From assembly GCA_021162745.1 (NCBI GenBank), contig JAGGYC010000113.1, positions 11,476-75,475 of the forward strand: a stretch of 64,000 nt of DNA, read 5' to 3'. The stretch is from Desulfuromonas sp. Its GTDB lineage: Bacteria; Desulfobacterota; Desulfuromonadia; Desulfuromonadales; Desulfuromonadaceae. Below the pieces are notes generated by a model. That model was not told where the DNA came from and ran no database searches. It saw only the letters and a program-made list of their open reading frames with translations. This document shows, in pieces, positions 7,870-24,111 of the stretch; the first letter of the stretch is position 1, and every line of letters begins with the position of its first letter. The position numbers and the translations under genes are program-made.

Positions 7870-9789
7870 ATGGGTAAAGTCATTGGAATCGATTTAGGAA
7901 CCACCAACTCTTGTGTCTCAGTTATGGAAGCCGGCGAGCCGACTGTTATTGCTAATGCCGAGGGATCACGCACTACCCCGTCAATGGTGGCTTTTGCTGA
8001 AAACGGCGAACGACTGGTTGGCCAACAGGCCAAGCGCCAAGCAGTCACCAACCCCGAAAACACTCTGTTTGCCATCAAGCGTCTCATCGGTCGCAAGTTT
8101 GACTCCGAGGCGGTAAAAAGAGATATCGAGATCAGCCCGTTCAATATTGTCAAGGCCGACAACGGCGATGCCTGGGTCGAAGCACGCGGCAAGCAGTACA
8201 GTGCGCCGGAGATCTCGGCTATGGTGCTGCAGAAGATGAAGCAGGCGGCCAGCGACTATCTGGGCGAGGATGTGACCGAAGCGGTTATTACCGTTCCTGC
8301 TTATTTCAACGATTCCCAGCGTCAAGCGACCAAGGATGCCGGTAAGATTGCCGGTCTTGAGGTGTTGCGTATCATCAACGAGCCGACGGCTGCTGCACTG
8401 GCTTACGGCATGGATAAAGAAGTCGAAGAGAAGATTGCTGTCTTTGACCTCGGCGGCGGTACGTTTGATGTGTCGATTCTTGAACTTGGCGATGGTGTGT
8501 TTGAGGTCAAATCCACCAACGGTGATACGTTTCTTGGTGGTGAGGACTTTGATCAACGTATCATTGATTACATTGCCGATGAGTTCAACAAAGAGCAGGG
8601 CATTGATCTGCGTGGCGACAAAATGGCTCTACAGCGGCTGAAAGAAGCGGCGGAAAAGGCCAAGTGTGAGTTGTCGACCTCCATGGAGACCGACATCAAC
8701 CTGCCATTCATCACTGCTGACCAAACCGGTCCCAAGCACATGAATCTGAAACTGAGCCGTGCCAAGCTGGAGAGTATTTGTGGCGATCTGTTGAGCAAGC
8801 TCGAAGCACCGTGCCGCACCGCTCTTAAGGATGCCGGCTTGTCCGCTTCCGATATCGACGAAGTGATCCTGGTTGGTGGTATGATTCGTATGCCTGCCGT
8901 TCAGGAGAAGGTTCAAGCGATCTTCGGCAAAGCGCCGAACAAGGGTGTTAACCCTGATGAGGTTGTTTCCATCGGTGCTGCCATTCAGGGTGGCGTTCTC
9001 AAAGGCGACGTTAAAGACGTGTTGTTGCTGGACGTTACGCCACTCTCTCTGGGGATCGAAACCCTCGGTGGCGTGTTGACCAAACTGATCGAAAAGAACA
9101 CCACCATCCCGTGCAAGAAGAGCCAGATCTTCTCCACTGCCGCTGACAATCAGCCGGCGGTATCGGTTCACGTTCTGCAAGGTGAGCGCGAGATGGCTAC
9201 GGACAACAAGACCATTGGTCGTTTCGAGTTGACCGACATTCCACCGGCACCACGCGGTGTGCCTCAGGTTGAGGTTACCTTTGACCTCGATGCCAACGGC
9301 ATCATTAGTGTTTCAGCTAAGGATATGGGTACCGGCAAAGAGCAGTCGATCAAGATTACCGCCTCCTCCGGTCTGAGCGATGACGAGATCGAAAAGATGG
9401 TCAAGGACGCTGAGCTGCACTCTGACGAGGACAAGAAGAAGCGTGAGCTGATCGAAGCTCGTAACCAGGCCGATAGCCTGGTGTACAGTACAGAGAAGTC
9501 TCTCAAGGATCATGGGGACAAAGTCGATGCTGAAACCAAGACCAACATCGAAGCCGCTCTAGAAGAGTTGAAGAAGGTGATGGAGGGTGATGACGCTGAA
9601 GCGATAAACAAGGCGGTTGAAGCCTTGGCTCAAGCGTCACACAAACTGGCCGAGGCGATGTACTCCCAAGCCCAGCAGGAAGCTGGTGCCGAGGGTAGTG
9701 AGGGCGCTGGCCCGGAAGCGGCTGCTGAAGGTGACGACGATGTTGTCGATGCTGAGTTCGAAGAAGTGGACGACGATAAAAAGAAATAA
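7870..9789 (+). CDS. dnaK: Chaperone DnaK (Hsp70)
   Basis: [37 protein letters not shown]; 639 aa. Confidence 0.99.
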
Positions 9790-9960: not shown

Positions 9961-11079
9961 TTGGCAAAACGCGACTACTATGAGGTGCTTGGCGTCCATC
10001 AAAACGCCAGCGAAGCCGAGATAAAAAAAGCCTATCGTCGGCTGGCGGTCAAGCACCATCCGGATAAAAATCCTGACGACAAAGTGGCTGAAGAGAAGTT
10101 CAAAGAGCTTTCTGAAGCCTATGTCGTGCTGGCCGATAACCAAAAGCGGGCCACCTATGATCAATTCGGTCATGCCGGAGTTGATGGTAGTGGCGGCGGA
10201 GGTTTCTCCTCCGGCGGCTTTGGCGGCAGTCCTTTTGAAGATATTTTCGGTGACATCTTTGGCGATATCTTTACCGGTGGTGGCGGATCGCGGCGTGGTC
10301 GTGGTCAGCGTGGCGATGATCTGCGTTATAATCTCGATATCAGTTTCGAGGATGCGGCTTTCGGCACCGAGACCGAGATAAAGCTTCCACGTCATCACAG
10401 CTGTGAGGCTTGCGGTGGCAGTGGCGCCAAGGCTGGTACCAGCCCGGAAACCTGTCCGACCTGTAACGGCGTCGGCCAGGTGCGTTACCAGCAGGGTTTT
10501 TTCCAGATGACCCGTCCTTGTCCTGATTGTGCCGGCACGGGCAGCAAGATTAAACATCCCTGCCCTGAATGTCGTGGCACCGGGCGAGTTAAAGAGAAGC
10601 GCAACCTGTCGTTACGTATTCCGGCCGGTGTTGAGACCGGAACGCGCCTCAAGTTGAGTGGTGAAGGGGAGAGTGGCATCCATGGTGGCCCGCCGGGTGA
10701 TCTGTATGTGGTGATAACCGTGGCCAGCCATCCGATTTTCCGTCGTGATGGCCGCAATGTGATCTGCGAAACGCCCCTCTCCTTTATCCAGGCGACACTC
10801 GGCTGTGAGCTGGAGGTGCCGACCCTCGATGGCCGTGTTAAGATTAAGGTTCCGGCGGGAACCCAGTCCGGCAAAATCCTTAAGCTGGCTGGCAAAGGGA
10901 TTCCTGATCTGCAGGGCTACCGTCGTGGTGACCAGTTGGTTGTATTGCGGGTCGAAACACCGACCAAGTTGACGTCGCGTCAGAAAGAACTCCTCGAGGA
11001 GTTTGCCCGTGAGGGCGGCGAAGAGGTCAATCCGATCGGTAAAGGCTTTTTCGAAAAAGTAAAAGAGATGTTTGATTAG
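9961..11079 (+). CDS. dnaJ: Chaperone DnaJ
   Basis: J-domain with HPD, G/F-rich linker, four CxxCxGxG repeats; TTG start. Confidence 0.98.
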
Positions 11080-11133
11080 AGAAGGCTCAACACAGCTGTG
11101 TGTTGTTGTTTTTTAGAATTGTGTTAATATACG

Positions 11134-11168
11134 CAGCTGTACTCTATTAGGGGTACAGCTGTTTTTTT
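11134..11168 (+). terminator. Intrinsic terminator after dnaJ
   Basis: Stem CAGCTGTAC / GTACAGCTG followed by T7. Confidence 0.75.
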
Positions 11169-11248
11169 GTATTTATGCTCTTGGTGAGCGTCTTGGACTC
11201 ACAGCATCAGGTTGTAGTTGTAGTTGTGGTTAATAAAAAGAGGTTCTC

Positions 11249-13183
11249 ATGTTAAAGCCGGTTTGTCGTGTCCTGATTTTGGTTGCTTTGCTGATGACCC
11301 TTGTTCCGGCCGTGTCCGTTGCTGTGGAGTTGATGGCGACCGCCGAATCGTCGTTGTCCATTGAGCCGGCACGTACCCTGTATCAGGGTGGTGAACCTGA
11401 TGCTGCACTCTCCTTTCTGCGTCGTTATCTGCTGGAACATCCCGATAGCCCCCATCTTAATGCTGCTCATCAGCTCATGGCGCGTATCCTTCTCGAAGAG
11501 CAACGTCAGCGTGATGCGTTGTTTTTTCTCCAGCGGATCGATCCACAACAACGCAGCAGCGAAGCGCAATTGCTCCAGGCTGCCGCGCTGCAGCAACTTG
11601 GTCAATTGGACGAGGCTGACCCACTGCTCGAATCGCTGTCGGGGGATGACTTTTTTGGCGCTGACCTGCCGTTGTATTATGGCTGTCGTGCCTGTTCACT
11701 CAGTGCCCGGAATGAATCTCTTCAAGCTCTGGTTATTCTCAGTCAGGCGTTTCGCTCAACAGATTTGCGCTATCATGATTTTCTCTATGCTCAGGTTCAG
11801 CAGATTCTGCAGAATCAGTCTGCAGAGATGGTGGCCGAAGCGGCGTTTATGTTTGCCGATACGCCGATCAGGGACGTGGTGATCCTGTATCAGGCTCAGC
11901 AGGCCATTGATATGGGTGATCGTGATCGTGCCCGTGTCTTGGCGCAGCCGCTGATCACCCAGGGGGAGATCATTGCCGTTCAGGTTGCCGCAGCGAAAAT
12001 TCTCGATCAGGTGGCCGGAATGCCATGGCACCAGCGTGCCATTGGCGTGGTTTTGCCGCTGAGCGGCCGCTATGCGCCGTTTGGTGAACTGGTTAAGCGG
12101 GGGATTGAACTGGCCGTCAGCCAGCAGCCACAGCCTCGCAGCCGAATGATCTATGTCGATAGTGCCGCTGACCCTCGGGTGGCTGCAGACGCGGTTCGAC
12201 GCCTGGTTCAGGTTCATCGCGTCATGGCCGTGATTGGGCCGTTGATCGGCGACGCTGCTGAACGGGGTGTTGTTGAGGCCGATAAAGCCCGGGTGCCGGT
12301 GTTGACCCTGTCACACCGGCAAGGATTGCCCCAATTGGGATCTTACGTTTTCCGCAATTCGTTAACGGCCCAGCAACAGGTCGATGCGCTGGCCGACTAT
12401 GCCATCAATACCTTGGGGATCAACAGCTATGCCGTGTTGTCTCCTGATAATCGGATGGGACAGGATTTTGCCGCCAAGTTCAGTGCCGCCATTGAAGAAC
12501 GCGGTGGCGATATGGAATATCGCTTGTCGTATGCCGATAAATCGACCGATTTTCGCCGTCAGCTAGTGCTGCTCAAAGGGGAAGATCCTGACGAGCCTGT
12601 GGATAAACAAGAGCCGCTGCCTGAGGAGGAAGCGGAAGAGGAGCCGATCCCCGGTTGGCCAACCGTTGAATTTGAAGCGCTGTTTATTCCTGACTATGCG
12701 GACACCATTGCGTTGTTGGCGCCGCAGCTGGCTTATTACGGTATCGAAAATGTTCAGCTGTTGGGTATCAATGGCTGGAATTCACCGACCCTGCTCAAGC
12801 AGGCGGGCCGTTATGCTCGCGGTGGTGTGTTCAGTGATGGTTTTTTCGCCCAGAGTCCTGATCCACAGGTGAAGGATTTTGTCCGTGATTATCAACAGCA
12901 GCTGGGCGAAGCTCCTTCAATTCTTGAAGCACAGGGCTATGACAGTGCCCGTCTGTTGCTGCAATTGCTCAATGATCCGGCTGTGACAACACCACAGCAA
13001 CTGTACTTACAGTTGATGAATCTTGAAAACTATCCCGGTGTGACCGGGTTGGCAGGTTTTGATGACCAGGGGGAAGCAGAGAGGATGATGTTTTTACTCC
13101 AGTTGGGTCGGCGCCGGATTTTACAGCTCCAGGGTTTGCCTTCCCCTCTGCCGCCTGTGACGCAGGATGAATTATTCGAGTGA
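11249..13183 (+). CDS. LpoA-like penicillin-binding protein activator / TPR + type I periplasmic binding fold protein
   Basis: Signal peptide, helical TPR-like N-terminus, then IGVVLPLSGRYAPFG...VIGPL...ALFIPDY...QGYDSARL typical of the LpoA/LppC C-terminal domain. Confidence 0.7.
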   Translation: MLKPVCRVLILVALLMTLVPAVSVAVELMATAESSLSIEPARTLYQGGEPDAALSFLRRYLLEHPDSPHLNAAHQLMARILLEEQRQRDALFFLQRIDPQQRSSEAQLLQAAALQQLGQLDEADPLLESLSGDDFFGADLPLYYGCRACSLSARNESLQALVILSQAFRSTDLRYHDFLYAQVQQILQNQSAEMVAEAAFMFADTPIRDVVILYQAQQAIDMGDRDRARVLAQPLITQGEIIAVQVAAAKILDQVAGMPWHQRAIGVVLPLSGRYAPFGELVKRGIELAVSQQPQPRSRMIYVDSAADPRVAADAVRRLVQVHRVMAVIGPLIGDAAERGVVEADKARVPVLTLSHRQGLPQLGSYVFRNSLTAQQQVDALADYAINTLGINSYAVLSPDNRMGQDFAAKFSAAIEERGGDMEYRLSYADKSTDFRRQLVLLKGEDPDEPVDKQEPLPEEEAEEEPIPGWPTVEFEALFIPDYADTIALLAPQLAYYGIENVQLLGINGWNSPTLLKQAGRYARGGVFSDGFFAQSPDPQVKDFVRDYQQQLGEAPSILEAQGYDSARLLLQLLNDPAVTTPQQLYLQLMNLENYPGVTGLAGFDDQGEAERMMFLLQLGRRRILQLQGLPSPLPPVTQDELFE

Positions 13184-13193
13184 TGGGTGACAA

Positions 13194-14300
13194 GTGATGG
13201 ACGGCTATTGGTTGATTATTATAACGGGCCTGGTCTCAGGTCTGATCGCCGGCTATGTCATGTATCGCTCTGACTATTGCCTGGTTGGGATGTTGCGTGA
13301 TCTGTTTATGTTTCGCAGTGGCACCATGGCTCGTTTTCTGGTGGTTCAGATTGCTGCCAGCCTGATTCTTCTCGAACTGGCGCGAGCCGCGGGTTGGTTG
13401 CCGTACTATCCGTCATTGCTGATGGGGCCGGCCAATTTGAGTAGTGTGATCGGTGGCGCACTCTTCGGTTTTGGCATGGTGCTGACCGGTAGTTGTGTGA
13501 TTGGCTGTGTGTACAGAACCGGGGCAGGTAATGCGCTGGGATTATGCACTCTGTTGGCGATGATTGGCGGCGCGACCCTGTTTGGCGAAATCGCTCCATG
13601 GTGGAAAGATGTCACCACGGAGCTTGGCGTGACAACGCAGGTGACCATCCCTCAGTCGCTGGGTATCAGCCCCGCTGTGGTGGTTTTTCCTCTTGCCGCC
13701 GTTCTGTTATTGTTGATCCGGCGCTGGTTCAAGGGGGGGCAGTTGATTCTGCCGGCGACGGCACGGGGCTATATTCAGCCGTGGAAAACGGCCGTGATTA
13801 TGGCCGTGATTACCCTTGGAGCCTGTGTCTTTACCGGCATGCCGTTGGGGATCACTACCAGCTATGTCAAAATAGGTGCCTGGCTGGAAAACTGGTTTAT
13901 CCCACAGCACGTGACAACAACGGCTTACTTTAACATTCAGGCGCTGGAATACATCCCACCTTTTACATCGACGGTCATTCGCGGTGGTACCATGCCCCAT
14001 TTTGATGCGATTGCAGCCTTGCAACTCTCCGTTATTCTAGGCATATTGGTTGGAGCATTTTTTTCAGCCAAGCGCTTAGGCGAGTTTCGTTGGGTTTTCC
14101 GGGTACCATTACGTCAGTATGGATTGGTGGTTGTCGGTGGTGTGCTGGTGGGATTAGCTGCCCGGATGGCGCCCGGCTGTAATGTCTGGCATCTGTTCGG
14201 TGGTGTGCCATTGTTGGCGTGGAATTCAATATTGTTTGCACTCGGGTTGTTGCCCGGTGTCTGGTTGGGCAGCAAAGTACTTTTGGCGCGGTTAGCGTAG
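13194..14300 (+). CDS. YeeE/YedE (TsuA) family sulfur-compound (thiosulfate) transporter
   Basis: Membrane protein with the three family Cys positions: RSDYCLVGMLRD, GMVLTGSC, RMAPGCN. Confidence 0.88.
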   Translation: MMDGYWLIIITGLVSGLIAGYVMYRSDYCLVGMLRDLFMFRSGTMARFLVVQIAASLILLELARAAGWLPYYPSLLMGPANLSSVIGGALFGFGMVLTGSCVIGCVYRTGAGNALGLCTLLAMIGGATLFGEIAPWWKDVTTELGVTTQVTIPQSLGISPAVVVFPLAAVLLLLIRRWFKGGQLILPATARGYIQPWKTAVIMAVITLGACVFTGMPLGITTSYVKIGAWLENWFIPQHVTTTAYFNIQALEYIPPFTSTVIRGGTMPHFDAIAALQLSVILGILVGAFFSAKRLGEFRWVFRVPLRQYGLVVVGGVLVGLAARMAPGCNVWHLFGGVPLLAWNSILFALGLLPGVWLGSKVLLARLA

Positions 14301-14311
14301 GCGGACTGTAA

Positions 14312-14548
14312 ATGGAAACAATCGAATTTGATATTTGTGGTCAGATTTGTCCGTCGGCGTTGTTGACAGCGCTACGGGAGATCAATGCTCATAAAAAAGG
14401 ACTGAAAGGGGGTACGTTGCAGCTGGTGATTAAAACCGACGCGCGCGACGCGACACGTACCATCCCTTCTGCTGTTGAAAATATGGGCTATCAGGTTGAT
14501 ATTGAACCGTTGGATGGATGCTACTGTATCCGAATTTTTGCAGGGTAA
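14312..14548 (+). CDS. TusA/YeeD-family sulfurtransferase
   Basis: 78 aa, FDICGQICPSAL (CPxP-like motif), directly after yeeE. Confidence 0.88.
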   Translation: METIEFDICGQICPSALLTALREINAHKKGLKGGTLQLVIKTDARDATRTIPSAVENMGYQVDIEPLDGCYCIRIFAG

Positions 14549-14557
14549 CCAATCGTT

Positions 14558-17239
14558 ATGGATGATGTGGACGTAACGTCTGAACAGCAGGTGCTTGAGA
14601 AACAGATTGCCCGGCTACAGCTGGAGAACAAGCAGCTGTTGCAACTGGAGCAGGAGGTCATTGGTTATGTTCGAGCCAAGGTTGACCAGCTGTTAAAAAT
14701 CATGGGCACCTTGCCGTTGCGTCAGGAGGAGCTGGATGATGAAACATTGCTGGCCCTCGACCCGATCGGTATTGTCGCTGAGAGTTTTGCTCAGATCCTT
14801 GAGCACCTGAAAGAAACCAACGATGACCTGGTGGTGGCCCGTGATGAGTTGGAAGCGATCTTTAATGCCACCGGTGCAGCGATTCTGGTGCTCGATGATG
14901 AGTTGACAATCCACTCCTGCAACCCCAAGGCCTTGGAGCGTTTTGGCATCGATCCATCCACCAGCATTGGTCATCATCTGTGCGATGCCATCCCCGCCTG
15001 TCATGATCTGCTCAGCGAAGAATTCCTGCATGATCTGTCTGCCTGTCGGGGTGGACAGATCGATCTGGAAACCTGTTTTCGCGATTACTGTTATCACCTG
15101 ATTGCCACTCCGGTTTGTGATTCCAACGACCATATTACCTTCTATGTGCTGATCTTCAGCGACATTACCGAGCGTAAAAAAACTGAAGACTCGCTGGTGG
15201 AGGCCGAAACACGCCTGACGGCAATCCTCAACACCATGATGGCCGGAATTGTCATTATCGATCCGGAAAGTCATTGTATTGTCGATGTCAACCATATGGC
15301 CGCCGAGTTGATCGGTGATCCACGCGATAAGATTATCGGTTCGGTCTGTCACCGCTATATCTGCCCGTCATCGGCGGGAAAATGTCCGCTGACCGACCTG
15401 AATCAGGTGATTGATAACTCCGACCGGATCCTGATCAATAGTAAAGGTGAACAGATCCCGATCCTTAAAACTGCGACCATTATTGAGCTGGCGGGCAAGA
15501 AATACATCCTTGAGAGCTTTATCGATATTCAAGGGCGTAAGCTTGCCGAGCAGGCTCTGCGAGAAAGTGAACAACGCTATCGCTCCCTGTATTCGGCGAT
15601 GAAAGAGGGGGTGGCGATCGGTGAGCTGATCTATGATGATCACGGCGTGGTGATCAACTATGTGCTGCATGACGTCAATCGGGCGAGTGCCCAGATATTG
15701 GAAAGCACTGTCGAAGAACTGATCGGTTCCCGGGCCTCTGAGCTGTATCAAGGTCAGGCTATTCCTCAGCTGCATATTCTCGATGAGGTGGTCCGTTACG
15801 GAGTGCCCAAGGAGTATGAGTTGCCGATTAAGCGTCTGGGCAAGGTGCTGCATGTCTCGGTGTCACGTCCGGAGTCAAATCGTTTTGCCGCCATTATCAA
15901 CGATGTAACGGCCAGTAAAAAAGCGCAAAAAGAGATTGAACGTCTCGCCTATTACGACACCCTGACCGGTTTGCCGAACCGGGTGCTGATTCGGGATCGT
16001 CTACAGCAGGCCATTGCCCAGGCCAAGCGCTCGCGCGCTTTGATCGGTGTTCTGGCTCTCGACCTTGACCACTTTAAGAAAATCAATGACTCGTTGGGGA
16101 TCGGCTGTGGTGATCGGATGCTTAAAGTCGTGGCTGAGCGACTTAAAAGCCATGTGCGGCAGGGGGATAGTGTTGCGCGTATGGGCGGTGACGAATTTGT
16201 TGTCCTGCTTACCGGCATCAACACTCAGAATGATATTGTTACCGCCGCCGGCAAGATTCTTGATCTGCTGGCCGAGCCGGTAAGCATTGACGAGCATGAG
16301 CTGGTCAGTACCGGTAGTCTGGGGATCTCCGTTTATCCGACCGATGCCGAAGATGTGGACCTGTTGCTCAAGCATGCCGATACCGCTATGTATCAGGCCA
16401 AAGAGACCGGTCGTAACCTCTATCAGTTCTATTCACCGGATATGAACGAGCGGGCCTTTGAGCGGCTGTTTCTCGACTCCGATCTACATCGGGCTCTTGA
16501 GCGGCAGGAGTTAGAACTCTATTATCAGCCGCAGATCAATCTAACCGATGGACAGGTGGTTGGTGTTGAAGCACTGTTGCGCTGGAATCATGTTCATAAA
16601 GGACAGATCTCGCCGGTGGTGTTTATTCCGCTGGCCGAGGAGTCGGATCTTATTCTTGATATTGGTCGTTGGGTGATGCAACAGGCCTGTCATCAGGCGC
16701 GTCGCTGGTACGACGCCGGTTATACCTCGTTGCGTGTTGCCGTAAACCTGTCTGCGCGTCAGTTCCGCAGCGATCTACCCGATATAGTGGCCCAGGTTCT
16801 ACGTGCGAGTCAGCTCCCTCCCCAGTTGCTGGAACTGGAGTTGACGGAAAGCCTGCTGATGGAAAAACCTGAGTTGGCGCGGATGATCCTCAATAAATTG
16901 CAGACTTTGGGCTGCAATTTGGCTATCGATGATTTTGGTACCGGTTATTCATCGCTGAGTTATCTGAAGCATTTCCCCCTCGACCGTCTGAAGATTGATC
17001 GCAGCTTTGTCAAGGATCTCAGCGTTGATCCCGATGATGCGATTATTGTTGAGGCGATTATCGCTCTGGCCCATGGCTTACGCCTGAAGGTGGTGGCCGA
17101 AGGGGTTGAAACCGTGGAACAGCTTGACTTCATGCGCGAGCACAGTTGCGATGAGGTTCAGGGTTTTATCATGGCCCGGCCCATGTCTGCCGATGATTTT
17201 ACCTGTTTTTTGCACCAATCCCGTCATAAGACCGATTGA
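14558..17239 (+). CDS. Multi-PAS diguanylate cyclase/phosphodiesterase (GGDEF-EAL), cytoplasmic
   Basis: About 100-aa helical N-terminus, three PAS-like segments, RQGD I-site + GGDEF, EAL and DDFGTGYSS intact; no TM segment seen. Confidence 0.93.
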   Translation: MDDVDVTSEQQVLEKQIARLQLENKQLLQLEQEVIGYVRAKVDQLLKIMGTLPLRQEELDDETLLALDPIGIVAESFAQILEHLKETNDDLVVARDELEAIFNATGAAILVLDDELTIHSCNPKALERFGIDPSTSIGHHLCDAIPACHDLLSEEFLHDLSACRGGQIDLETCFRDYCYHLIATPVCDSNDHITFYVLIFSDITERKKTEDSLVEAETRLTAILNTMMAGIVIIDPESHCIVDVNHMAAELIGDPRDKIIGSVCHRYICPSSAGKCPLTDLNQVIDNSDRILINSKGEQIPILKTATIIELAGKKYILESFIDIQGRKLAEQALRESEQRYRSLYSAMKEGVAIGELIYDDHGVVINYVLHDVNRASAQILESTVEELIGSRASELYQGQAIPQLHILDEVVRYGVPKEYELPIKRLGKVLHVSVSRPESNRFAAIINDVTASKKAQKEIERLAYYDTLTGLPNRVLIRDRLQQAIAQAKRSRALIGVLALDLDHFKKINDSLGIGCGDRMLKVVAERLKSHVRQGDSVARMGGDEFVVLLTGINTQNDIVTAAGKILDLLAEPVSIDEHELVSTGSLGISVYPTDAEDVDLLLKHADTAMYQAKETGRNLYQFYSPDMNERAFERLFLDSDLHRALERQELELYYQPQINLTDGQVVGVEALLRWNHVHKGQISPVVFIPLAEESDLILDIGRWVMQQACHQARRWYDAGYTSLRVAVNLSARQFRSDLPDIVAQVLRASQLPPQLLELELTESLLMEKPELARMILNKLQTLGCNLAIDDFGTGYSSLSYLKHFPLDRLKIDRSFVKDLSVDPDDAIIVEAIIALAHGLRLKVVAEGVETVEQLDFMREHSCDEVQGFIMARPMSADDFTCFLHQSRHKTD

Positions 17240-17240
17240 T

Positions 17241-18599
17241 ATGAGTGCAGACGATCCCTCTTTATTGCCGGTAGTGACGCCCGATCTGGTGCTGCATGGT
17301 GCTGTGGGTGGGCACTGGACCATTGCCGCTATCAGCCGCGGGGTGGTCGAGGGTCTTGATGGCGGACAGAGCTACTGTGGTGCCGCAGTGGATCGGGTGT
17401 TTGCCGATGTGCGTCCATCGCTGTGTGATCTGGCCGAAGAGGTGCTCAGCAGTCAGAACTCTCTGCAGGAGATTCCGATCCAGTTTGCCGATGGGCAGCG
17501 TTATCGGGCCGAGGTGGTTGAAGGTGGTCTCAGCGACGATTACCGCAGCCATACGGTGATGTTTTACTTGCACCCACTGCCCCATGATCAACGTCGCAGC
17601 GTTGAGTCGTTTCATGACATGATCGGCGCCAGTGTAGCGATGCAGGAGGTCTATCGTAAGATCGGTCTCTACGCGGCCTCCGATGCCGCCGTCGTGATTA
17701 CCGGCGAGACCGGTTCCGGCAAGGAACTGGTGGCGCGGGCGATTCATGCTGAAAGTGCGCGTCACGACAAGCCATATATTGCCCTTAATTGCAGTGCCAT
17801 TGCCGAAGACCTGCTCGAATCTGAGCTGTTTGGTCACGAAAAAGGAGCCTTTACCGGCGCGGTACGCAGTCATCGTGGTCGTTTTGAACGGGCTGACGGT
17901 GGCAGCCTGTTTCTCGATGAAATCGGTGATATGCCGCTGCACACCCAGACCCGGTTGTTGCGGGTACTCGAAGAGCGCAGCGTTGAGCCGGTCGGTTCAG
18001 AGCGGGTGCTGCCCATTGATGTGCGGATTATCTGTGCCACCAATGTCGGTCTGGAAGATGCGGTCGGCAAGGGGCTGTTTCGTAGTGATCTTTACCACCG
18101 GATCAGTGTATTGCGCATTCATTTGCCGCCGCTGCGCGAGCGTAGCGAGGATATCCCGTTGCTGGTTACTGCCTTTCTCGACCGGTTTAGCCACACTTAT
18201 CAGCGCCGGGTGGAAAAACTGACACCGGAAGCGATGACATTGTTGCAATCGTATCTATGGCCGGGAAATATTCGTGAGTTACGCAATGTGATGGAGCGCA
18301 TCTTTGTTGAAAACCATGCCGCGGTGATCGGCGTGCGTGCCTTTTCGGAATGGGTGCGCGAACGGCAGAATTTTATTACCCCGCGCTGGGAAGAATCGCC
18401 GGCGCTGTCTGATCCCCCCCTGATTCCCCCCTATCCTCTACCCGTGGCCGCGCCAAGGGAGCTGAGCGAAGAGCGGATTCGGCAAGCGTATACCGCCAGC
18501 AATGGCAATATCAGCGCTGCCGCACGTGCGCTAGGCGTCCATCGCGCCACCCTCTATCGCCACTTGAAACGCTTAGGCCTCGATCGCAGCCGCCTGTAA
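17241..18599 (+). CDS. Sigma54-dependent transcriptional activator (bEBP) with Fis-type HTH and no receiver domain
   Basis: GETGSGKE, ESELFGHEKGAFTGA, LFLDEIG, WPGNIREL, C-terminal HTH. ATG 17241 is 1 bp after the upstream stop. Confidence 0.93.
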   Translation: MSADDPSLLPVVTPDLVLHGAVGGHWTIAAISRGVVEGLDGGQSYCGAAVDRVFADVRPSLCDLAEEVLSSQNSLQEIPIQFADGQRYRAEVVEGGLSDDYRSHTVMFYLHPLPHDQRRSVESFHDMIGASVAMQEVYRKIGLYAASDAAVVITGETGSGKELVARAIHAESARHDKPYIALNCSAIAEDLLESELFGHEKGAFTGAVRSHRGRFERADGGSLFLDEIGDMPLHTQTRLLRVLEERSVEPVGSERVLPIDVRIICATNVGLEDAVGKGLFRSDLYHRISVLRIHLPPLRERSEDIPLLVTAFLDRFSHTYQRRVEKLTPEAMTLLQSYLWPGNIRELRNVMERIFVENHAAVIGVRAFSEWVRERQNFITPRWEESPALSDPPLIPPYPLPVAAPRELSEERIRQAYTASNGNISAAARALGVHRATLYRHLKRLGLDRSRL

Positions 18600-18624
18600 C
18601 CGAAAAACAATACCTCTATTGAGT

Positions 18625-21183
18625 TCAGGAAGAGCTCTTCGGCAGGGCAATATAGAAGGTCGTACCATGGTCCGGACAACTCTCCAGCCAAGCTTGGCCG
18701 TGATGGGCCAGAATGATCTCTTTGACCAGGGCCAGGCCCAGTCCGGTGCCACCAATGCGCCGACAGTCACTGTTATCGACCCGATAGAAATGGTCAAATA
18801 TCAACGGTTGATCCGCTTCGGCGATCCCCATTCCCTGATCTGTCACGGAGATTTGAATGGTCGCATCATGATCGCGGGCCGCCAGGGTGATCATGCCGCC
18901 AGCGGGGGAATATTTGATGGCGTTGCTTAGCAAGTTCTTCAGCACCTGCAATAATTGGTCGCGATCCCCCCGCAGTGCGGGCAGATCTTCGGGGCATTCC
19001 AGCGTGATCTGATGCCGCTCGGAGGCATGACTGAACAGATGGGTGGCATCCCTGAGCAGAGGATACACGATGACATCATCAATCTTGGGGCTTAGTTTTT
19101 TGGCCCTGAATTGCTGCAGGTTGAGCAGATTGTCAATTAACTCTTTCAATTTCAAGGTCTCGTCATACACGGTACTGAGGCACTCCCGTCGCATCGCCGG
19201 TTCAGGGTCGTTTTCGATGATGAATTCGGTAAAGCCCAGCATGGCGGTCAGAGGGGTGCGCATCTCATGACTGACCATTGACAGCATCTCATTTTTCAAC
19301 TGTTCGAGCTTGAGCCGCTCGCTGATGTCATGGGCCATCAATACATACACCCGCTCCCCTTCCAGCTCGGTCTGTTGCATATGAATCTCCACCGGGTAGG
19401 TGGTGGCATCGCGGCAGCGATGTTTACCGATGAAAACCAATGTTTTCTTCTCCCCCGTGTTGAGGGGGTGTACCAGCTGCTTAAAGGTTTCGAGGTTCTG
19501 GTCGGCCAGAATATCGGTAATCTTGAGTTGCAGGAGCTGCCCCTGGCGATATCCTAGCTTCTTTCGTGCACCGAGGGTGGTACGGAGCAATGTCAGACGG
19601 GTTCCATCAATCAGATAGATCTCCTCCAGCGACGAATCCAGAATACGACCAAAACGACTGGCCAGCTGCTGTGCTTTTTTCAGGTCGGTGATATCGAGCA
19701 TGGTGCCGACAACACCGGCAACAGCACCACAGCCATCATGAAACAGCGCCTTATGATAGATGACATTGCGTGGCTGGCCCAGGCTATTGATTACCGTATT
19801 TTCATAGCATTGCACACCGCCGTTGCGGATCAACTCCTCATCGGATTGTTTTGCTTTTTCAGCAAGATTTTTGGGAAACAGCTCATCATTGGTCTTGCCG
19901 ATCAGGTCGTGCTGGTCTTCAGCAAAACCAAAAAAATCAACTCCAGCCTTGTTGCTGCCAAGATACACCCCTTTAGTATCACGATAAAAAAGCGGAACGG
20001 CAATAGCATCGAGCAACTCTTCCGTGAACTCCTTTTTCTCCTTCAGAGCATGTTCTGCCTGCTGACGACGAAAATTGTTACGTGTCAACACCATCACCGT
20101 CGCCACCAGCCAACCGAAGATCAGGACCACCCCCCACACCCCATAGCGATAGCGATAATAAAATGTCTGTGGTTCATTGATGATCTCGCTGTCGGCGGGA
20201 AACTGATAGCGTGACAGTCCCAGTCGTTTCATCTCCTGATAATTGAACCGATAATTGATCTGACCGATAATGGGGCCCGTATAATCCCGAATACTGCCAT
20301 GCTGTAGCAACTCATCCACCAGACGAACCGCTGCGATCCCCTGGTGTCTGCTGCTGAGCACGAACCCACCCAGTACCCCGTCCGTAATGTAATCGTCCCA
20401 CAGGGTATAGACCGGGATTTCGCTGTGAGCCCGCACAATCTTTGGAGCCAGACTGAGGGGATAACTGACTCCGTCGCGGTCGCGCAGATAACTCAATAAC
20501 AGTACCAGGGAGTCTTGAGGCAGGCGTTGAAGTGCTGTTTCCAGCTCAGTGGCAGGCAGACCGACCAGCGGTGTAAAACGCACCCGTTCGCTGTAGTCCG
20601 GCACTGCCGCATTCAGCTGTTCCTGCATCAGTTGACCGGTCTGGGTGACATCGCTGATAACGGCGATCTGCCGTGTTGAAGGGTGGAGTGACAGCATCAA
20701 ATCCAGCGTGGCCTTGAGATCATGTTGCTCGATGACGCCGACAAAATCATCATTTCCTCCCAGCATGGCAGGGGTGAAGTCGGCGATACCGCAAAAAACC
20801 ACCGGACTATCGTGAAAAATTTGTCGACGGTACAACGCCATAAAATTCAAGGCGTTGTTATCACAAGCGATGATGGCGTCAAAGGTGATGGGTGCGTATT
20901 TTAGTTGGTAGAGGGGAGCCAGCAGCGGGAACATGGTTTCCCGATTGATCCGTTTGGTATCCATGTATTCGATGAACAGCTCAACATCCAAGCCGGTGCG
21001 GGCAAATTCATCTCGAATCCCCCGCGTGAGCTCATCGGACCAGGCATAGCCCTGATGGTAGGAATGAAGCACCAGTATCCGTTTAGGTGGTAATGATTGA
21101 GCAGACCACGCCACGCCAGCGCTACCCAGAGTCCAGCACAGCAGTAAGCCTGTTATTACCAATGCACGAGTTATCATAATCAC
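18625..21183 (-). CDS. Membrane sensor histidine kinase (periplasmic substrate-binding-like domain, PAS-PAS, HisKA, HATPase)
   Basis: RILVLHSYH periplasmic domain, one TM, two PAS, SHEMRTPLT, NLLSNAIKYS, GGTGLGL. Confidence 0.92.
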   Translation of the reverse strand: MIMITRALVITGLLLCWTLGSAGVAWSAQSLPPKRILVLHSYHQGYAWSDELTRGIRDEFARTGLDVELFIEYMDTKRINRETMFPLLAPLYQLKYAPITFDAIIACDNNALNFMALYRRQIFHDSPVVFCGIADFTPAMLGGNDDFVGVIEQHDLKATLDLMLSLHPSTRQIAVISDVTQTGQLMQEQLNAAVPDYSERVRFTPLVGLPATELETALQRLPQDSLVLLLSYLRDRDGVSYPLSLAPKIVRAHSEIPVYTLWDDYITDGVLGGFVLSSRHQGIAAVRLVDELLQHGSIRDYTGPIIGQINYRFNYQEMKRLGLSRYQFPADSEIINEPQTFYYRYRYGVWGVVLIFGWLVATVMVLTRNNFRRQQAEHALKEKKEFTEELLDAIAVPLFYRDTKGVYLGSNKAGVDFFGFAEDQHDLIGKTNDELFPKNLAEKAKQSDEELIRNGGVQCYENTVINSLGQPRNVIYHKALFHDGCGAVAGVVGTMLDITDLKKAQQLASRFGRILDSSLEEIYLIDGTRLTLLRTTLGARKKLGYRQGQLLQLKITDILADQNLETFKQLVHPLNTGEKKTLVFIGKHRCRDATTYPVEIHMQQTELEGERVYVLMAHDISERLKLEQLKNEMLSMVSHEMRTPLTAMLGFTEFIIENDPEPAMRRECLSTVYDETLKLKELIDNLLNLQQFRAKKLSPKIDDVIVYPLLRDATHLFSHASERHQITLECPEDLPALRGDRDQLLQVLKNLLSNAIKYSPAGGMITLAARDHDATIQISVTDQGMGIAEADQPLIFDHFYRVDNSDCRRIGGTGLGLALVKEIILAHHGQAWLESCPDHGTTFYIALPKSSS

Positions 21184-21519
21184 CTACAGCAGGGCTAAAA
21201 ATAGCGACGTTTAAACAAGTGTAACGGCCATTTCAGCTTGCGTCTAGCACAAGGTGTTTAGCTGTCTTTAATTAAGTAACGTTCGAAATGATCTTGGTCC
21301 GGTTTGCCGGTGTCAAAGTCGTTGTGCAACGTCGCAGTTGTCGCAGTTCCAGCGTCGCTGCGACGTTGCAATCATGGTGAAAATCGCTGCCAACATGCGC
21401 AACTGACTGAAATTTGGCATAGCTGGTCATTGGTACATCTTTTGATAGAGTAAAAGGGTAGAGCGATAGAGTATTCAAAGGCGGTACCGTGAAAATGATG
21501 AATAAGGAGACGTGAAGTC

Positions 21520-24111
21520 ATGAACAGAGATCAAATGACACGTAATAGCCAGCAGGCTTTGCAGCAGGCCAGGGAATTGGCCTTACAGCAAGGCCACGCT
21601 GAAATCGATAATGAGCATCTGTTGCTGGCCCTGCTGGATCAGGCCGATGGCTTGGTGCCGCGATTGCTGGAAAAGATGGCGTTGCCGGTGGCCCGGATAC
21701 GCCAACAGCTACAGGCGTTGCTGGACAAACGCTCTCAGGTCAGTGGCACAGGGCAGCAGTTATACCTGTCTCCGCGTCTGGATCGGATGTTGAGTAAAGC
21801 ACAACATGAGGCCGAGAGTTTAAAAGACGACTACATCAGTGTTGAACATCTGTTGCTGGCCCTGCTCGGTGAAGATAAAAACAGCGAACTGGGGCAGCTG
21901 TTTGCCGGCTATCAGCTGACGCCTTCTAAGTTGTTGACGGTTCTCGAAGAGGTGCGCGGTCACCAGCGCGTGACCAGTGAAGATCCCGAGTCCACCTATG
22001 AGGTGCTGGAAAAATATGGCCGCGATCTGGTTTCAGCCGTTCGCGAAGGCAAGCTCGATCCGGTGATTGGCCGAGATGAAGAGATTCGCCGCGTGATCCG
22101 CATCTTGTCGCGAAAAACCAAAAACAATCCGGTGCTGATCGGTGAACCGGGGGTGGGTAAAACCGCTATCGTTGAAGGACTGGCACAACGCATTGTGCGT
22201 GGAGACGTGCCCGACGGCATGAAAGACAAAACCATCTTTGCCCTCGATATGGGGGCGCTGATCGCCGGGGCCAAATATCGCGGTGAGTTTGAAGAGCGCT
22301 TGAAAGCGGTGCTCAACGAAATCAAAAACAGCGATGGTCGCATTCTGTTGTTTATCGACGAGTTGCACACCATCGTCGGTGCCGGCAAGACCGAAGGGTC
22401 CATGGATGCGGGCAACATGCTCAAGCCGTTGCTGGCCCGTGGTGAGTTGCACTGCATCGGTGCGACAACTTTGGATGAACATCGCAAGCATATTGAAAAG
22501 GATGCTGCTCTGGAGCGGCGTTTTCAGCCGGTGGTGGTCAGTCAGCCGACGGTGGAGGACAGCATCAGTATCCTGCGTGGACTTAAGGAGCGCTTCGAGG
22601 TCTACCATGGCGTCCAGATTCAGGATCAGGCCCTGGTGGCCGCAGCGACCCTGAGTCAACGTTATATCTCCGATCGCTTTTTGCCGGATAAAGCCATTGA
22701 CCTGATCGACGAAGCCTGTGCCATGATCCGCACCGAGATCGATTCGATGCCGGCGGCCATGGATACGGCAGCGCGGCGGGCGATGCAGTTGGAGATTGAA
22801 GAGGCGGCACTGCTCAAGGAATCCGATCCGGCCAGCAAGGAGCGGTTGAAGACACTACAGGCCGAGCTGGCGGAACAGAAGCACGTGGTGGATACCTGCA
22901 AGGCGCAGTGGGATGTTGAGAAAGCGGCCCTGCAGCAGGTGCAGCACGTGCGTGAGCAGATCGAACAGGCGGGAAATCAGTTGGAAGCCGCCGAGCGCGA
23001 TTACGACCTCAACACCGCTGCCGAGATTCGTCACGGTCGTCTGCCGCAGCTTGAGCAGCAGCTTAAGGAACTGGAAGTTGCCGCCGCCGAACGCCCTGAA
23101 GGGCAACGGCTGTTGCATGAACGTGTCGGTGTCGAAGAGATTGCCGGTATCGTCGCCCGCTGGACGGGGATTCCGGTCGAACGGATGCTCGAAGGGGAGC
23201 GGGAAAAACTGCTCAAACTCGATCAGCTGCTGCATCAGCGGGTGATCGGTCAGCATGAAGCAGTCCAGTTGGTCAGCGATGCCGTCATCCGCGCTCGGTC
23301 CGGTATCAAGGATCCACGCCGTCCCATGGGGTCGTTTATCTTTCTCGGTCCCACCGGTGTCGGCAAGACCGAGCTGGCCAAGGCTCTGGCTGCGGCGCTG
23401 TTTGACAGCGAAGAGCAGATGGTGCGACTCGACATGTCGGAATATATGGAGAAACACACGGTCAGTCGTCTGGTGGGGGCACCTCCCGGTTATATCGGTT
23501 ACGATGAAGGGGGCCAGCTCACCGAAGCGGTGCGCCGCCGCCCATACAGCGTGGTATTGTTCGATGAGATTGAAAAGGCCCATCCCGATATCTTCAATGT
23601 GTTGTTGCAGATCATGGACGATGGCCGGATTACCGATTCCCATGGCCGCACGGTGGATTTCAAGAATACGGTGATCATCATGACCTCGAATATCGGTGCT
23701 GAATATCTGCTTCAGGATGAAGGCGCTGAGGTCAGCGACTCCGCTCGTCAGGCAGTGATGGCGGAATTACGCCGCCGGTTCCGGCCGGAATTTCTCAACC
23801 GTGTTGACGATACCGTGTTGTTTCAGCCGCTGAGTCGTGAGCAATTGGCGCAGATTATCGATCTACAGCTCGAGGAGTTACAGCAGCGGCTGTCTGATCG
23901 ACGGATCAGCATTGTTCTCAGTGATGAAGCCAAACTGCTGGTGTGTGATCGGGCTTATGATCCCCATTATGGTGCGCGGCCCCTTAAGCGTTATCTGCAA
24001 CATCAGTTGGAAACGCGTATCGGTCGGGCGCTTATCGCCGGTGAGGTGATGGATGACAGCCGAATTGAGGTAGGGGTAGAAAATGGTGAATTAAGCCTGA
24101 AGATGGAATAG
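21520..24111 (+). CDS. clpB: ATP-dependent disaggregase ClpB
   Basis: Two AAA+ modules (GEPGVGKT; GPTGVGKT) and a long middle coiled coil; 863 aa. Confidence 0.97.

Follow-up and report, generated by a model that had tools for sequence, protein, structure and literature searches.

The 64,000-nucleotide stretch of Desulfuromonas sp. DNA analysed here (hereafter the window; assembly GCA_021162745.1, contig JAGGYC010000113.1) carries on its forward strand four closely packed genes, which encode a YeeE-like sulfur channel, a YeeD-like sulfur carrier of the TusA type, a sensor protein with PAS, GGDEF and EAL domains and a sigma-54 activator; the intergenic gaps are only 11, 9 and 1 bp (Table 1). 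An earlier note on the same sequence had described these four genes and read them as a single operon, in which YeeE and YeeD would serve as sulfur-sensing input both to a cyclic di-GMP (c-di-GMP) enzyme and to the sigma-54 activator. Our open reading frame (ORF) calls confirm this arrangement and Pfam confirms the identities of the products; as the note had also remarked, no sulfur-assimilation genes lie nearby. A fifth gene of the same strand had been overlooked. It encodes a secreted protein with TPR repeats and a binding-protein domain (the TPR-binding protein below), and because it ends 10 bp ahead of yeeE and begins after a strong terminator downstream of dnaJ, the transcription unit likely comprises five genes, from the TPR-binding protein through the sigma-54 activator.

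At least 7 related genomes share this gene order, and its YeeE-YeeD-sensor core returns in several phyla; the arrangement is not a matter of chance. We consider it fairly probable that the operon is a tail-to-head fusion of two functional units: a transporter-coupled sulfur sensor (Unit 1) and a chaperone regulator (Unit 2).

The YeeE-YeeD-sensor trio

The sensor begins with a region, the N-module (residues 35-104), that is matched by no Pfam model and whose distribution is remarkably restricted. Of 61 related genomes surveyed, 30 proved to have a YeeE orthologue, and 28 loci were compared. In all 27 loci that reach past YeeD, which come from relatives of the same taxonomic order, the first ~250 residues encoded by the next gene match the window's sensor; the outputs are GGDEF-EAL in 15 loci and HisKA-HATPase in 10, and are cut off at a contig end in 2. 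The activator is less constant: three relatives keep the sensor and have lost the activator. When residues 30-115 were searched against a set of 5.8 billion proteins, 79 proteins were recovered, with GGDEF-EAL, kinase or hybrid kinase outputs, including proteins of Desulfuromonas acetoxidans (88% identity), Thioalkalivibrio denitrificans, Thiobacillus sedimenti, Rhodocyclaceae and a Geothermincolia metagenome-assembled genome (MAG); three distant loci that we inspected contain Sulf_transp, TusA and sensor genes with gaps of 16 bp or less. Finally, with the N-module alignment as query, a scan that took one genome from each prokaryotic species yielded 221 loci, and 76 of the best 80, which were inspected, show the order YeeE-YeeD-sensor. 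The four exceptions among these 80 are a locus at a contig edge with YeeD, a locus with YeeD and without a detected YeeE, one with the order sensor-YeeE-YeeD and one with neither gene; across all 80 loci the outputs are GGDEF-EAL (43), GGDEF cut by the contig end (3), kinase (26), and none or truncated (8).

The N-module is almost exclusive to the position directly behind YeeE-YeeD, in at least six phyla. The trio occurs in Desulfuromonadota, Gamma- and Betaproteobacteria, Nitrospirota, Desulfobulbales and the Geothermincolia (Actinomycetota) MAG, and on single contigs of Chloroflexota and Rokubacteria MAGs. Most hosts either oxidise sulfur (Thiobacillus, Chromatiales, Thioalkalivibrio, Sulfuritalea) or are reducers of sulfur or sulfate, or disproportionators (Desulfuromonas, Desulfuromusa, Desulfurivibrio, Thermodesulfovibrionales). 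The output domain has been swapped among these lineages while the N-module stays. Since the N-module remains fixed behind YeeE-YeeD whatever the output, the data support YeeE/YeeD as a sensory input, which is what had been proposed for the c-di-GMP enzyme, and the pair is probably the input to the PAS/GGDEF/EAL protein of the window.

The channel and the carrier are members of their families. The YeeE-like protein passes PF04143 well above the cut-off of 27 bits and covers profile positions 1-310 of 310. The motifs around its C29, C101 and C329 pair with the Cys-bearing motifs of Spirochaeta thermophila YeeE (6LEO; C22, C91, C293), and these three channel Cys are 94-97% conserved among 78 sensor-linked homologues. 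The carrier passes PF01206 (cut-off 28.6 bits) and has its Cys in the N-terminal C-P motif; this Cys13, in the motif D-I-x-G-Q-I-C-P-S-x-L-L (GQICPS), is invariant in 80/80 homologues. The pair shares with TsuA/TsuB (Escherichia coli, S. thermophila; 6LEO, 8J4C) the fold family, the three channel Cys and a TusA-like partner with a catalytic Cys. It differs by its low similarity (E 2.4e-16 for the YeeE-like protein against 6LEO), by the GQICPS carrier, by the lack of assimilation genes near it and by being locked to a sensor gene. The scores against the NCBIfam equivalogs are far under the cut-offs, both for TsuA (NF052577, 108.2 vs 400 bits; NF041049, 70.4 vs 645 bits) and for TsuB (19 vs 147.5 bits), and therefore this YeeE/YeeD pair represents a subfamily separate from TsuA/TsuB, to which the substrate is not transferable by homology. 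The genome contains a second Sulf_transp locus (contig C134, 3661-4757), split into half-size genes of 190 and 174 aa, which has as neighbour a PAS protein gene of the opposite strand and lacks an N-module sensor.

Pfam identifies in the sensor two or more PAS domains, a GGDEF domain (171.6 bits) and an EAL domain (245.7 bits). In its translation the GGDEF motif, the RxxD I-site, the EAL motif (EALLR), DDFGTGYS, KIDRSF and EGVE are all intact, and judged by these motifs it is of the bifunctional GGDEF-EAL type. Among the family members, GGDEF is intact in 45/46 and EAL in 39/43. The N-module follows the pattern Y-[IV]-R-x-K-[VI]-D-Q-L-L-x2-M-G-T-L-P-L-R-x-E-E-L-D-D-E-T-L-x2-L-D-P-I-G-I, then a long helix and the PAS domain. 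In an alignment of 75 sequences, with that of the window as first row, it has 14 invariant residues, none of them Cys and all of them found in the window's protein. An AlphaFold2 model built from these 75 sequences (predicted local distance difference test score, pLDDT, 89) shows a helix (5-48), the conserved loop, a short helix, a further helix (69-104) and PAS1 (108-202); the loop that joins the two long helices reads GTLPLRxEELDDETLxxLDPIGI. Foldseek returned for the N-module generic PAS-plus-helix matches only, with no specific structural relative. We propose that the N-module is a docking site for YeeD or YeeE.

PAS1 is rich in Cys in every clade, and the positions vary by clade: C-x5-C-x8-C in many kinase and Desulfuromonadales members, D-C-N plus C-x-C in beta- and gammaproteobacterial members, H-S-C-N plus I-P-x-C in the window's genus. 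PAS2 carries the motif C-H-x3-C-P-x5-C-P (residues 264-277, positions 15347-15388), which is kept in the window's family and partly in three other loci (L043, L052, L055; such labels are ours), and scores just under the threshold of PF24820 (26.8 vs 28.1 bits). This Cys/His motif may provide a second input, metal or redox. In a close relative (genome G009, locus L034, ~10400-11709) the sensor is broken after about residue 197 by an insert of ~1.3 kb, probably a mobile element, while the YeeE, YeeD and activator genes are intact.

Unit 1 may work as follows. The channel would let in a small sample of external sulfur species, for example thiosulfate, polysulfide or persulfide, and Cys13 of the carrier would take the sulfane sulfur at the cytoplasmic face of the channel, as in TsuA/TsuB. 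The sensor would dock by its Cys-free N-terminal helical hairpin and read the loaded state of the carrier, most likely through sulfur transfer to a Cys of the adjoining PAS1. The balance between GGDEF and EAL would then shift and the level of c-di-GMP would change.

Among the trios, two Geobacter-type loci (L100, L128) encode sensors of only 335 aa, with N-module and PAS and no output domain, which suggests that they act via a partner protein. Seven Nitrospirota loci (L108, L111, L113, L127, L129, L134, L138) have a kinase-type trio followed by a sigma-54 activator gene and, 3-4 kb further on, a second, longer YeeE-like gene (466-468 aa), which may encode a bulk importer under the control of the trio.

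The product of the gene in front of yeeE has a signal peptide, TPR repeats and a Peripla_BP_6 domain (Pfam, 1.2e-41), and its relatives in the Protein Data Bank are LivJ-type binding proteins. Among the loci compared, this gene precedes yeeE only in the window's family (family f1), and a metagenome scan found no relatives of it. It is, as far as the comparison of loci indicates, a lineage-specific add-on to the yeeE operon, and the secreted protein possibly presents the ligand.

The sigma-54 activator and the chaperone genes

The last gene of the operon encodes a complete sigma-54 activator (Sigma54_activat, 229.4 bits; AAA_lid_14; HTH_8, 35.4 bits) with an intact GAFTGA motif, and rpoN is present in the genome. 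Neither Pfam nor NCBIfam gives a Response_reg match, so that it is not an NtrC-type response regulator, and its N-terminal 120 residues match no Pfam model. The N-domain (about residues 10-115) was modelled by AlphaFold2 with the beta2-alpha3-beta3 topology of PAS domains (pLDDT 80.6), all of its top Foldseek matches are PAS or LOV domains, and hhalign aligned it in register with PAS1 of the sensor at 54% probability. On this modelling we take the N-domain to be a divergent PAS domain, and the earlier description of the activator as receiver-less stands. Sequence searches with the N-domain added little: a profile that had kept AAA+ columns gave 202,610 uninformative matches, of which we used only the dozen or so top matches covering the N-domain, and word-based searches returned 3 and 5 proteins only.

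The neighbours of the activator gene are chaperone genes. In every relative that has the activator, among the related-genome loci, it adjoins clpB or hsp20-clpB. All seven family f1 genomes with the activator have a sigma-54-type box, TGG[CT]A[CT]-N5-TTG[AT], 89-126 nt before the clpB start. Six of the seven have at least one copy of the palindrome TGCAACGTTGCA/TGCGACGTCGCA 70-106 bp upstream of this box, and the seventh (L042) has a TGTCGCA/TGCGACA variant in its place. The palindrome and the box also precede hsp20 in two other families, giving a total of 9 genomes from 3 families with constant geometry. In two relatives without the activator the GG of the box has become TG or AG, and a third such relative lacks the motifs altogether. 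Within the 18-kb loci, palindrome and box co-occur only before clpB or hsp20, and the region upstream of clpB is the only site in the 2.9-Mb genome at which two exact palindromes stand beside a sigma-54-like box. In 12 loci neither motif was found upstream of the yeeE operon, and autoregulation by the activator was discarded on this ground.

The activator also occurs apart from the trio. In other Desulfuromonadales its orthologues are flanked by pstCAB-phoU on one side and by csp or hsp20-hsp20-clpB on the other, genes for YeeE, YeeD and the sensor being absent within 6-9 kb, and at one of these loci the same pair of palindromes recurs together with the box TGGCACGGGGTTTGA. When metagenomes were scanned for the double palindrome, at least 120 stretches were hit. 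Among the 80 matches listed, most are chance occurrences without a sigma-54 box, and the four with a box (L154, L180, L193, L211) all precede hsp20-hsp20-clpB, none with a YeeE module. Since orthologues with the same motifs adjoin hsp20-clpB where YeeE is absent, the activator, its enhancer, the promoter and the chaperone genes appear to form an autonomous regulon, which in the window's family has apparently been joined to the end of a sulfur-sensor operon. The earlier note had cast the activator as a sulfur-sensing output, plausibly for attachment or sulfur respiration. These data do not support this: the conserved partner is instead hsp20/clpB with enhancer and box, and orthologues keep this neighbour where the trio is lacking. 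From gene order and DNA motifs, the activator is most likely a chaperone regulator and not a sulfur-respiration output, and clpB is probably its target gene.

In Unit 2, the PAS-AAA+-HTH activator would bind the paired TGCGACGTCGCA-type palindromes, 60-105 bp ahead of the TGGYAY-N5-TTGA sigma-54 promoter, and drive clpB (hsp20-clpB in other families), with a PAS input of its own. In the window's family it would be co-transcribed with Unit 1, from a gene placed 1 bp behind that of the sensor.

Two side observations concern the surroundings of these genes. In loci of other Desulfuromonadales (L146/L147 and L148) the gene of the PAS-type chaperone activator directly follows pstCAB-phoU. A cold-shock (CSD) gene stands between activator and clpB in L146/L147, and in L052 a cold-shock-like ORF separates the activator from the hsp20 enhancer.

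Competing explanations and known systems

Several observations weigh against the two-unit explanation. (i), the junction between the sensor and activator genes is extremely tight, 1 bp here and -11 to +2 bp in six relatives; such junctions suggest co-transcription and perhaps more, and hint at a functional tie between sensor and activator that two units leave unexplained. (ii), the -12 element of the box reads TTGA or TTGT, where the canonical sequence is TTGC. (iii), the N-module could bind YeeE instead of the carrier, or could serve dimerisation alone. (iv), PAS1 offers no universal candidate for an acceptor Cys, as the Cys positions depend on the clade, and therefore any acceptor site must have shifted from one clade to another.

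The tight junction is an argument for a single linear pathway of the kind proposed in the earlier note, in which YeeE/YeeD would act on the diguanylate cyclase/phosphodiesterase and this in turn on the activator, via c-di-GMP or by contact of the sensor with the PAS domain of the activator, such that sulfur stress induces clpB. The adjacency of sensor and activator is held in three families, the genes of kinase-type sensors frequently have a sigma-54 activator gene with a receiver behind them, which makes sigma-54 regulators a recurrent partner of this sensor family, and the PAS-fold N-domain predicted for the activator could accept a ligand or a protein partner. We nevertheless regard this pathway as unlikely, because orthologous activators with the same enhancer stand beside hsp20-clpB with no YeeE, YeeD or sensor near, because three relatives have kept the sensor and lost the activator, and because the gap between the two genes widens to 90-150 bp in families f16 and f24. 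The N-domain also lacks a conserved Cys. Nor are c-di-GMP-binding residues of the FleQ type apparent in the plain translation: the contact motifs of FleQ are LFRS, an R-N after Walker A and ExxxR, and the activator reads SFHD for LFRS and VARAIH for VARNLH. Equally improbable, in our opinion, is a sulfur relay from the carrier to a Cys of the docked PAS sensor that resembles a phosphorelay, in which c-di-GMP or the sensor also modulates the activator and reactive sulfur induces ClpB.

YeeE and YeeD might instead be clients or helpers of the sensor, supplying sulfur for a metal-sulfur cofactor in a Cys-rich PAS domain, or being a transporter that the sensor gates. The C-x5-C-x8-C triad of PAS1 in many clades would fit such a cofactor, as would the window's PAS2 motif, which resembles a metal site and has the weak PF24820 match. 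Yet the Cys patterns vary across the family while the Cys-free N-module is constant, and members with kinase outputs or with no output retain the trio, for which a shared input is a better explanation than a shared target. Furthermore, the iron-sulfur needs of such sensors are normally met by general iron-sulfur machineries. We hold this explanation to be very doubtful. That the sensor has no more than a promoter in common with a sulfur-uptake pair and answers another cue, such as redox or oxygen, through its three PAS domains of unassigned ligand is just as hard to credit, since simple co-expression would not maintain, in at least six phyla and through changes of output, the near-exclusive pairing of the N-module with YeeE-YeeD. 

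The two-unit explanation can be set beside systems already described. The earlier note knew of no characterised system with this layout, and our literature searches agree: we found no paper that combines YeeE and YeeD with a histidine kinase or YeeE and TusA with GGDEF, none that describes the YeeE-YeeD-N-module-sensor trio, and no report of a sigma-54-dependent hsp20/clpB regulon in Desulfuromonadales. The closest system is that of Hyphomicrobium denitrificans, SoxT1B-(TusA)-SoxR/sHdrR, in which the YeeE-family protein SoxT1B is the signalling unit for an ArsR-type repressor and a TusA-type carrier is proposed as intermediate (Li et al. 2024, PMC11582611). The same article, which does not mention kinases or diguanylate cyclases, cites biochemical work as showing persulfidation of TsuB (YeeD) and the YeeE-YeeD partnership (PMC11582611). 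The two systems have in common a YeeE-family protein used for signalling and not for bulk import, a TusA carrier and a cytoplasmic receiver. The receiver of SoxT1B has two sensing Cys and belongs to the ArsR-type repressors, whereas that of the trio is a large PAS protein which begins with a unique N-module and has c-di-GMP or kinase outputs, and no ArsR/HTH_5-type gene lies within 11249-18599. The trio may work like SoxT1B-SoxR without being a member of that system.

The sensor-activator pair recalls NifL-NifA, a co-transcribed PAS sensor and receiver-less sigma-54 activator whose NifA N-domain is a GAF domain. The NifL-NifA complex 9QQ6 was among the Foldseek matches. In both cases the gene of a PAS sensor is translationally coupled to that of a receiver-less sigma-54 activator; however, the N-domain of the window's activator is PAS and not GAF, and its orthologues in other Desulfuromonadales do not have this sensor as neighbour. 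HsfA/HsfB of Myxococcus xanthus provides a precedent for a sigma-54 activator that controls a heat-shock gene, lonD. The window's activator would likewise control a chaperone or heat-shock protease gene in a former deltaproteobacterium, but whereas HsfA is a response regulator that a kinase phosphorylates, it is a PAS protein without receiver and has another target.

FisR of Cupriavidus and Acinetobacter is a receiver-less sigma-54 activator of sqr and pdo that responds to sulfide and persulfide (PMC7315123). It shares with the window's activator an N-terminal regulatory domain and a sulfur-related context, and differs in targets (sqr/pdo against hsp20/clpB). We rejected the activator as a FisR-like Cys sensor because its C46 and C62 lack conservation across 8 orthologues and the N-domain has no conserved Cys; the two are set apart by Cys and targets only, and the Cys criterion is a weak one, since Acinetobacter baumannii FisR also lacks the Cupriavidus-type Cys (PMC7315123). 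Finally, NreBC of Bacillus licheniformis has a PAS kinase, encoded in a sulfur cluster with a TusA homologue, and is thought to sense sulfide by heme (PMC9918477); the YeeE partner that marks the trio is missing there.

Little is understood of how bacteria detect external inorganic sulfur, and besides a few thiol-based repressors SoxT1B-SoxR is the only transporter-linked sulfur sensing that has been described. The trio, present in at least 221 species-level genomes of sulfur oxidisers and reducers alike, connects a channel and a carrier for sulfur with the two principal signalling outputs of bacteria, c-di-GMP and histidine kinases. It constitutes a defined system, with one invariant carrier Cys, one proposed docking module of 70 residues and enzymatic read-outs. 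In addition, the PAS-activator, the palindromes and the sigma-54 box before hsp20/clpB suggest that Desulfuromonadales have a chaperone regulon dependent on sigma-54.

Flanking features of the locus

Table 1. Features of the yeeE operon and its surroundings, in positions of the window.
Feature	Position	Strand	Evidence or remark
dnaK	7870-9789	+	upstream of cluster
dnaJ	9961-11079	+	upstream of cluster
Intrinsic terminator-like hairpin and T-run, 3' of dnaJ	11133-11170 (hairpin 11133-11162)	+	13-bp stem, 6 GC pairs, T7 tail
Secreted TPR and type-I periplasmic binding protein (Leu/Ile/Val-binding-like), 644 aa	11249-13183	+	Pfam
YeeE-like sulfur channel (PF04143)	13194-14300	+	Sulf_transp, 162.5 bits
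TusA/YeeD-like sulfur carrier	14312-14548	+	Pfam TusA, 38.1 bits
Soluble sensor, 893 aa: N-module, PAS1, PAS2, PAS3, GGDEF, EAL	14558-17239	+	Pfam, translation
Sensor N-module, residues 35-104	14660-14869	+	alignment of 75 sequences, AlphaFold2
Sensor PAS1, residues 105-205	14870-15172	+	Cys121, Cys142, Cys148
Receiver-less sigma-54 activator, 452 aa	17241-18599	+	Pfam, AlphaFold2
PAS-PAS histidine kinase, 852 aa	18625-21183	-	Pfam; between activator and clpB
Two 12-bp palindromes, TGCAACGTCGCA and TGCGACGTTGCA, putative enhancer	21325-21370	+	conservation
Sigma-54-type -24/-12 box, TGGTACATCTTTTGA	21431-21445	+	75 nt (box end) to 89 nt (box start) before clpB ATG
clpB, probable activator target	21520-24111 (ATG 21520)	+	Pfam, synteny

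The yeeE-like ORF begins with GTG, and an ATG follows at 13197. The activator ORF begins with an ATG that lies in frame within a longer ORF with a TTG start (17106-18599).

The hairpin downstream of dnaJ appears from its sequence and position to mark the upstream limit of the operon. Its stem, ACAGCTGTAC/GTACAGCTGT, is kept in 7 Desulfuromonadaceae genomes, with 10 bp perfectly conserved and then a T-run. In the same genomes a conserved box, TTGTGTTA(T/A)A(G/T)T, lies directly 5' of the hairpin, while the rest of the spacer is variable. The region 11110-11170, with box and hairpin, may act as terminator of dnaKJ, or may instead hold a promoter followed by a leader or attenuator; a search of 10900-21600 with Rfam returned nothing at E values up to 1.

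The PAS-PAS-HisKA-HATPase kinase encoded on the opposite strand between the activator gene and clpB belongs to neither unit and is particular to this genome. Its N-terminus of ~380 residues has no assigned domain, and the relatives have at this position either nothing or a HAMP-PAS-GGDEF-EAL gene.

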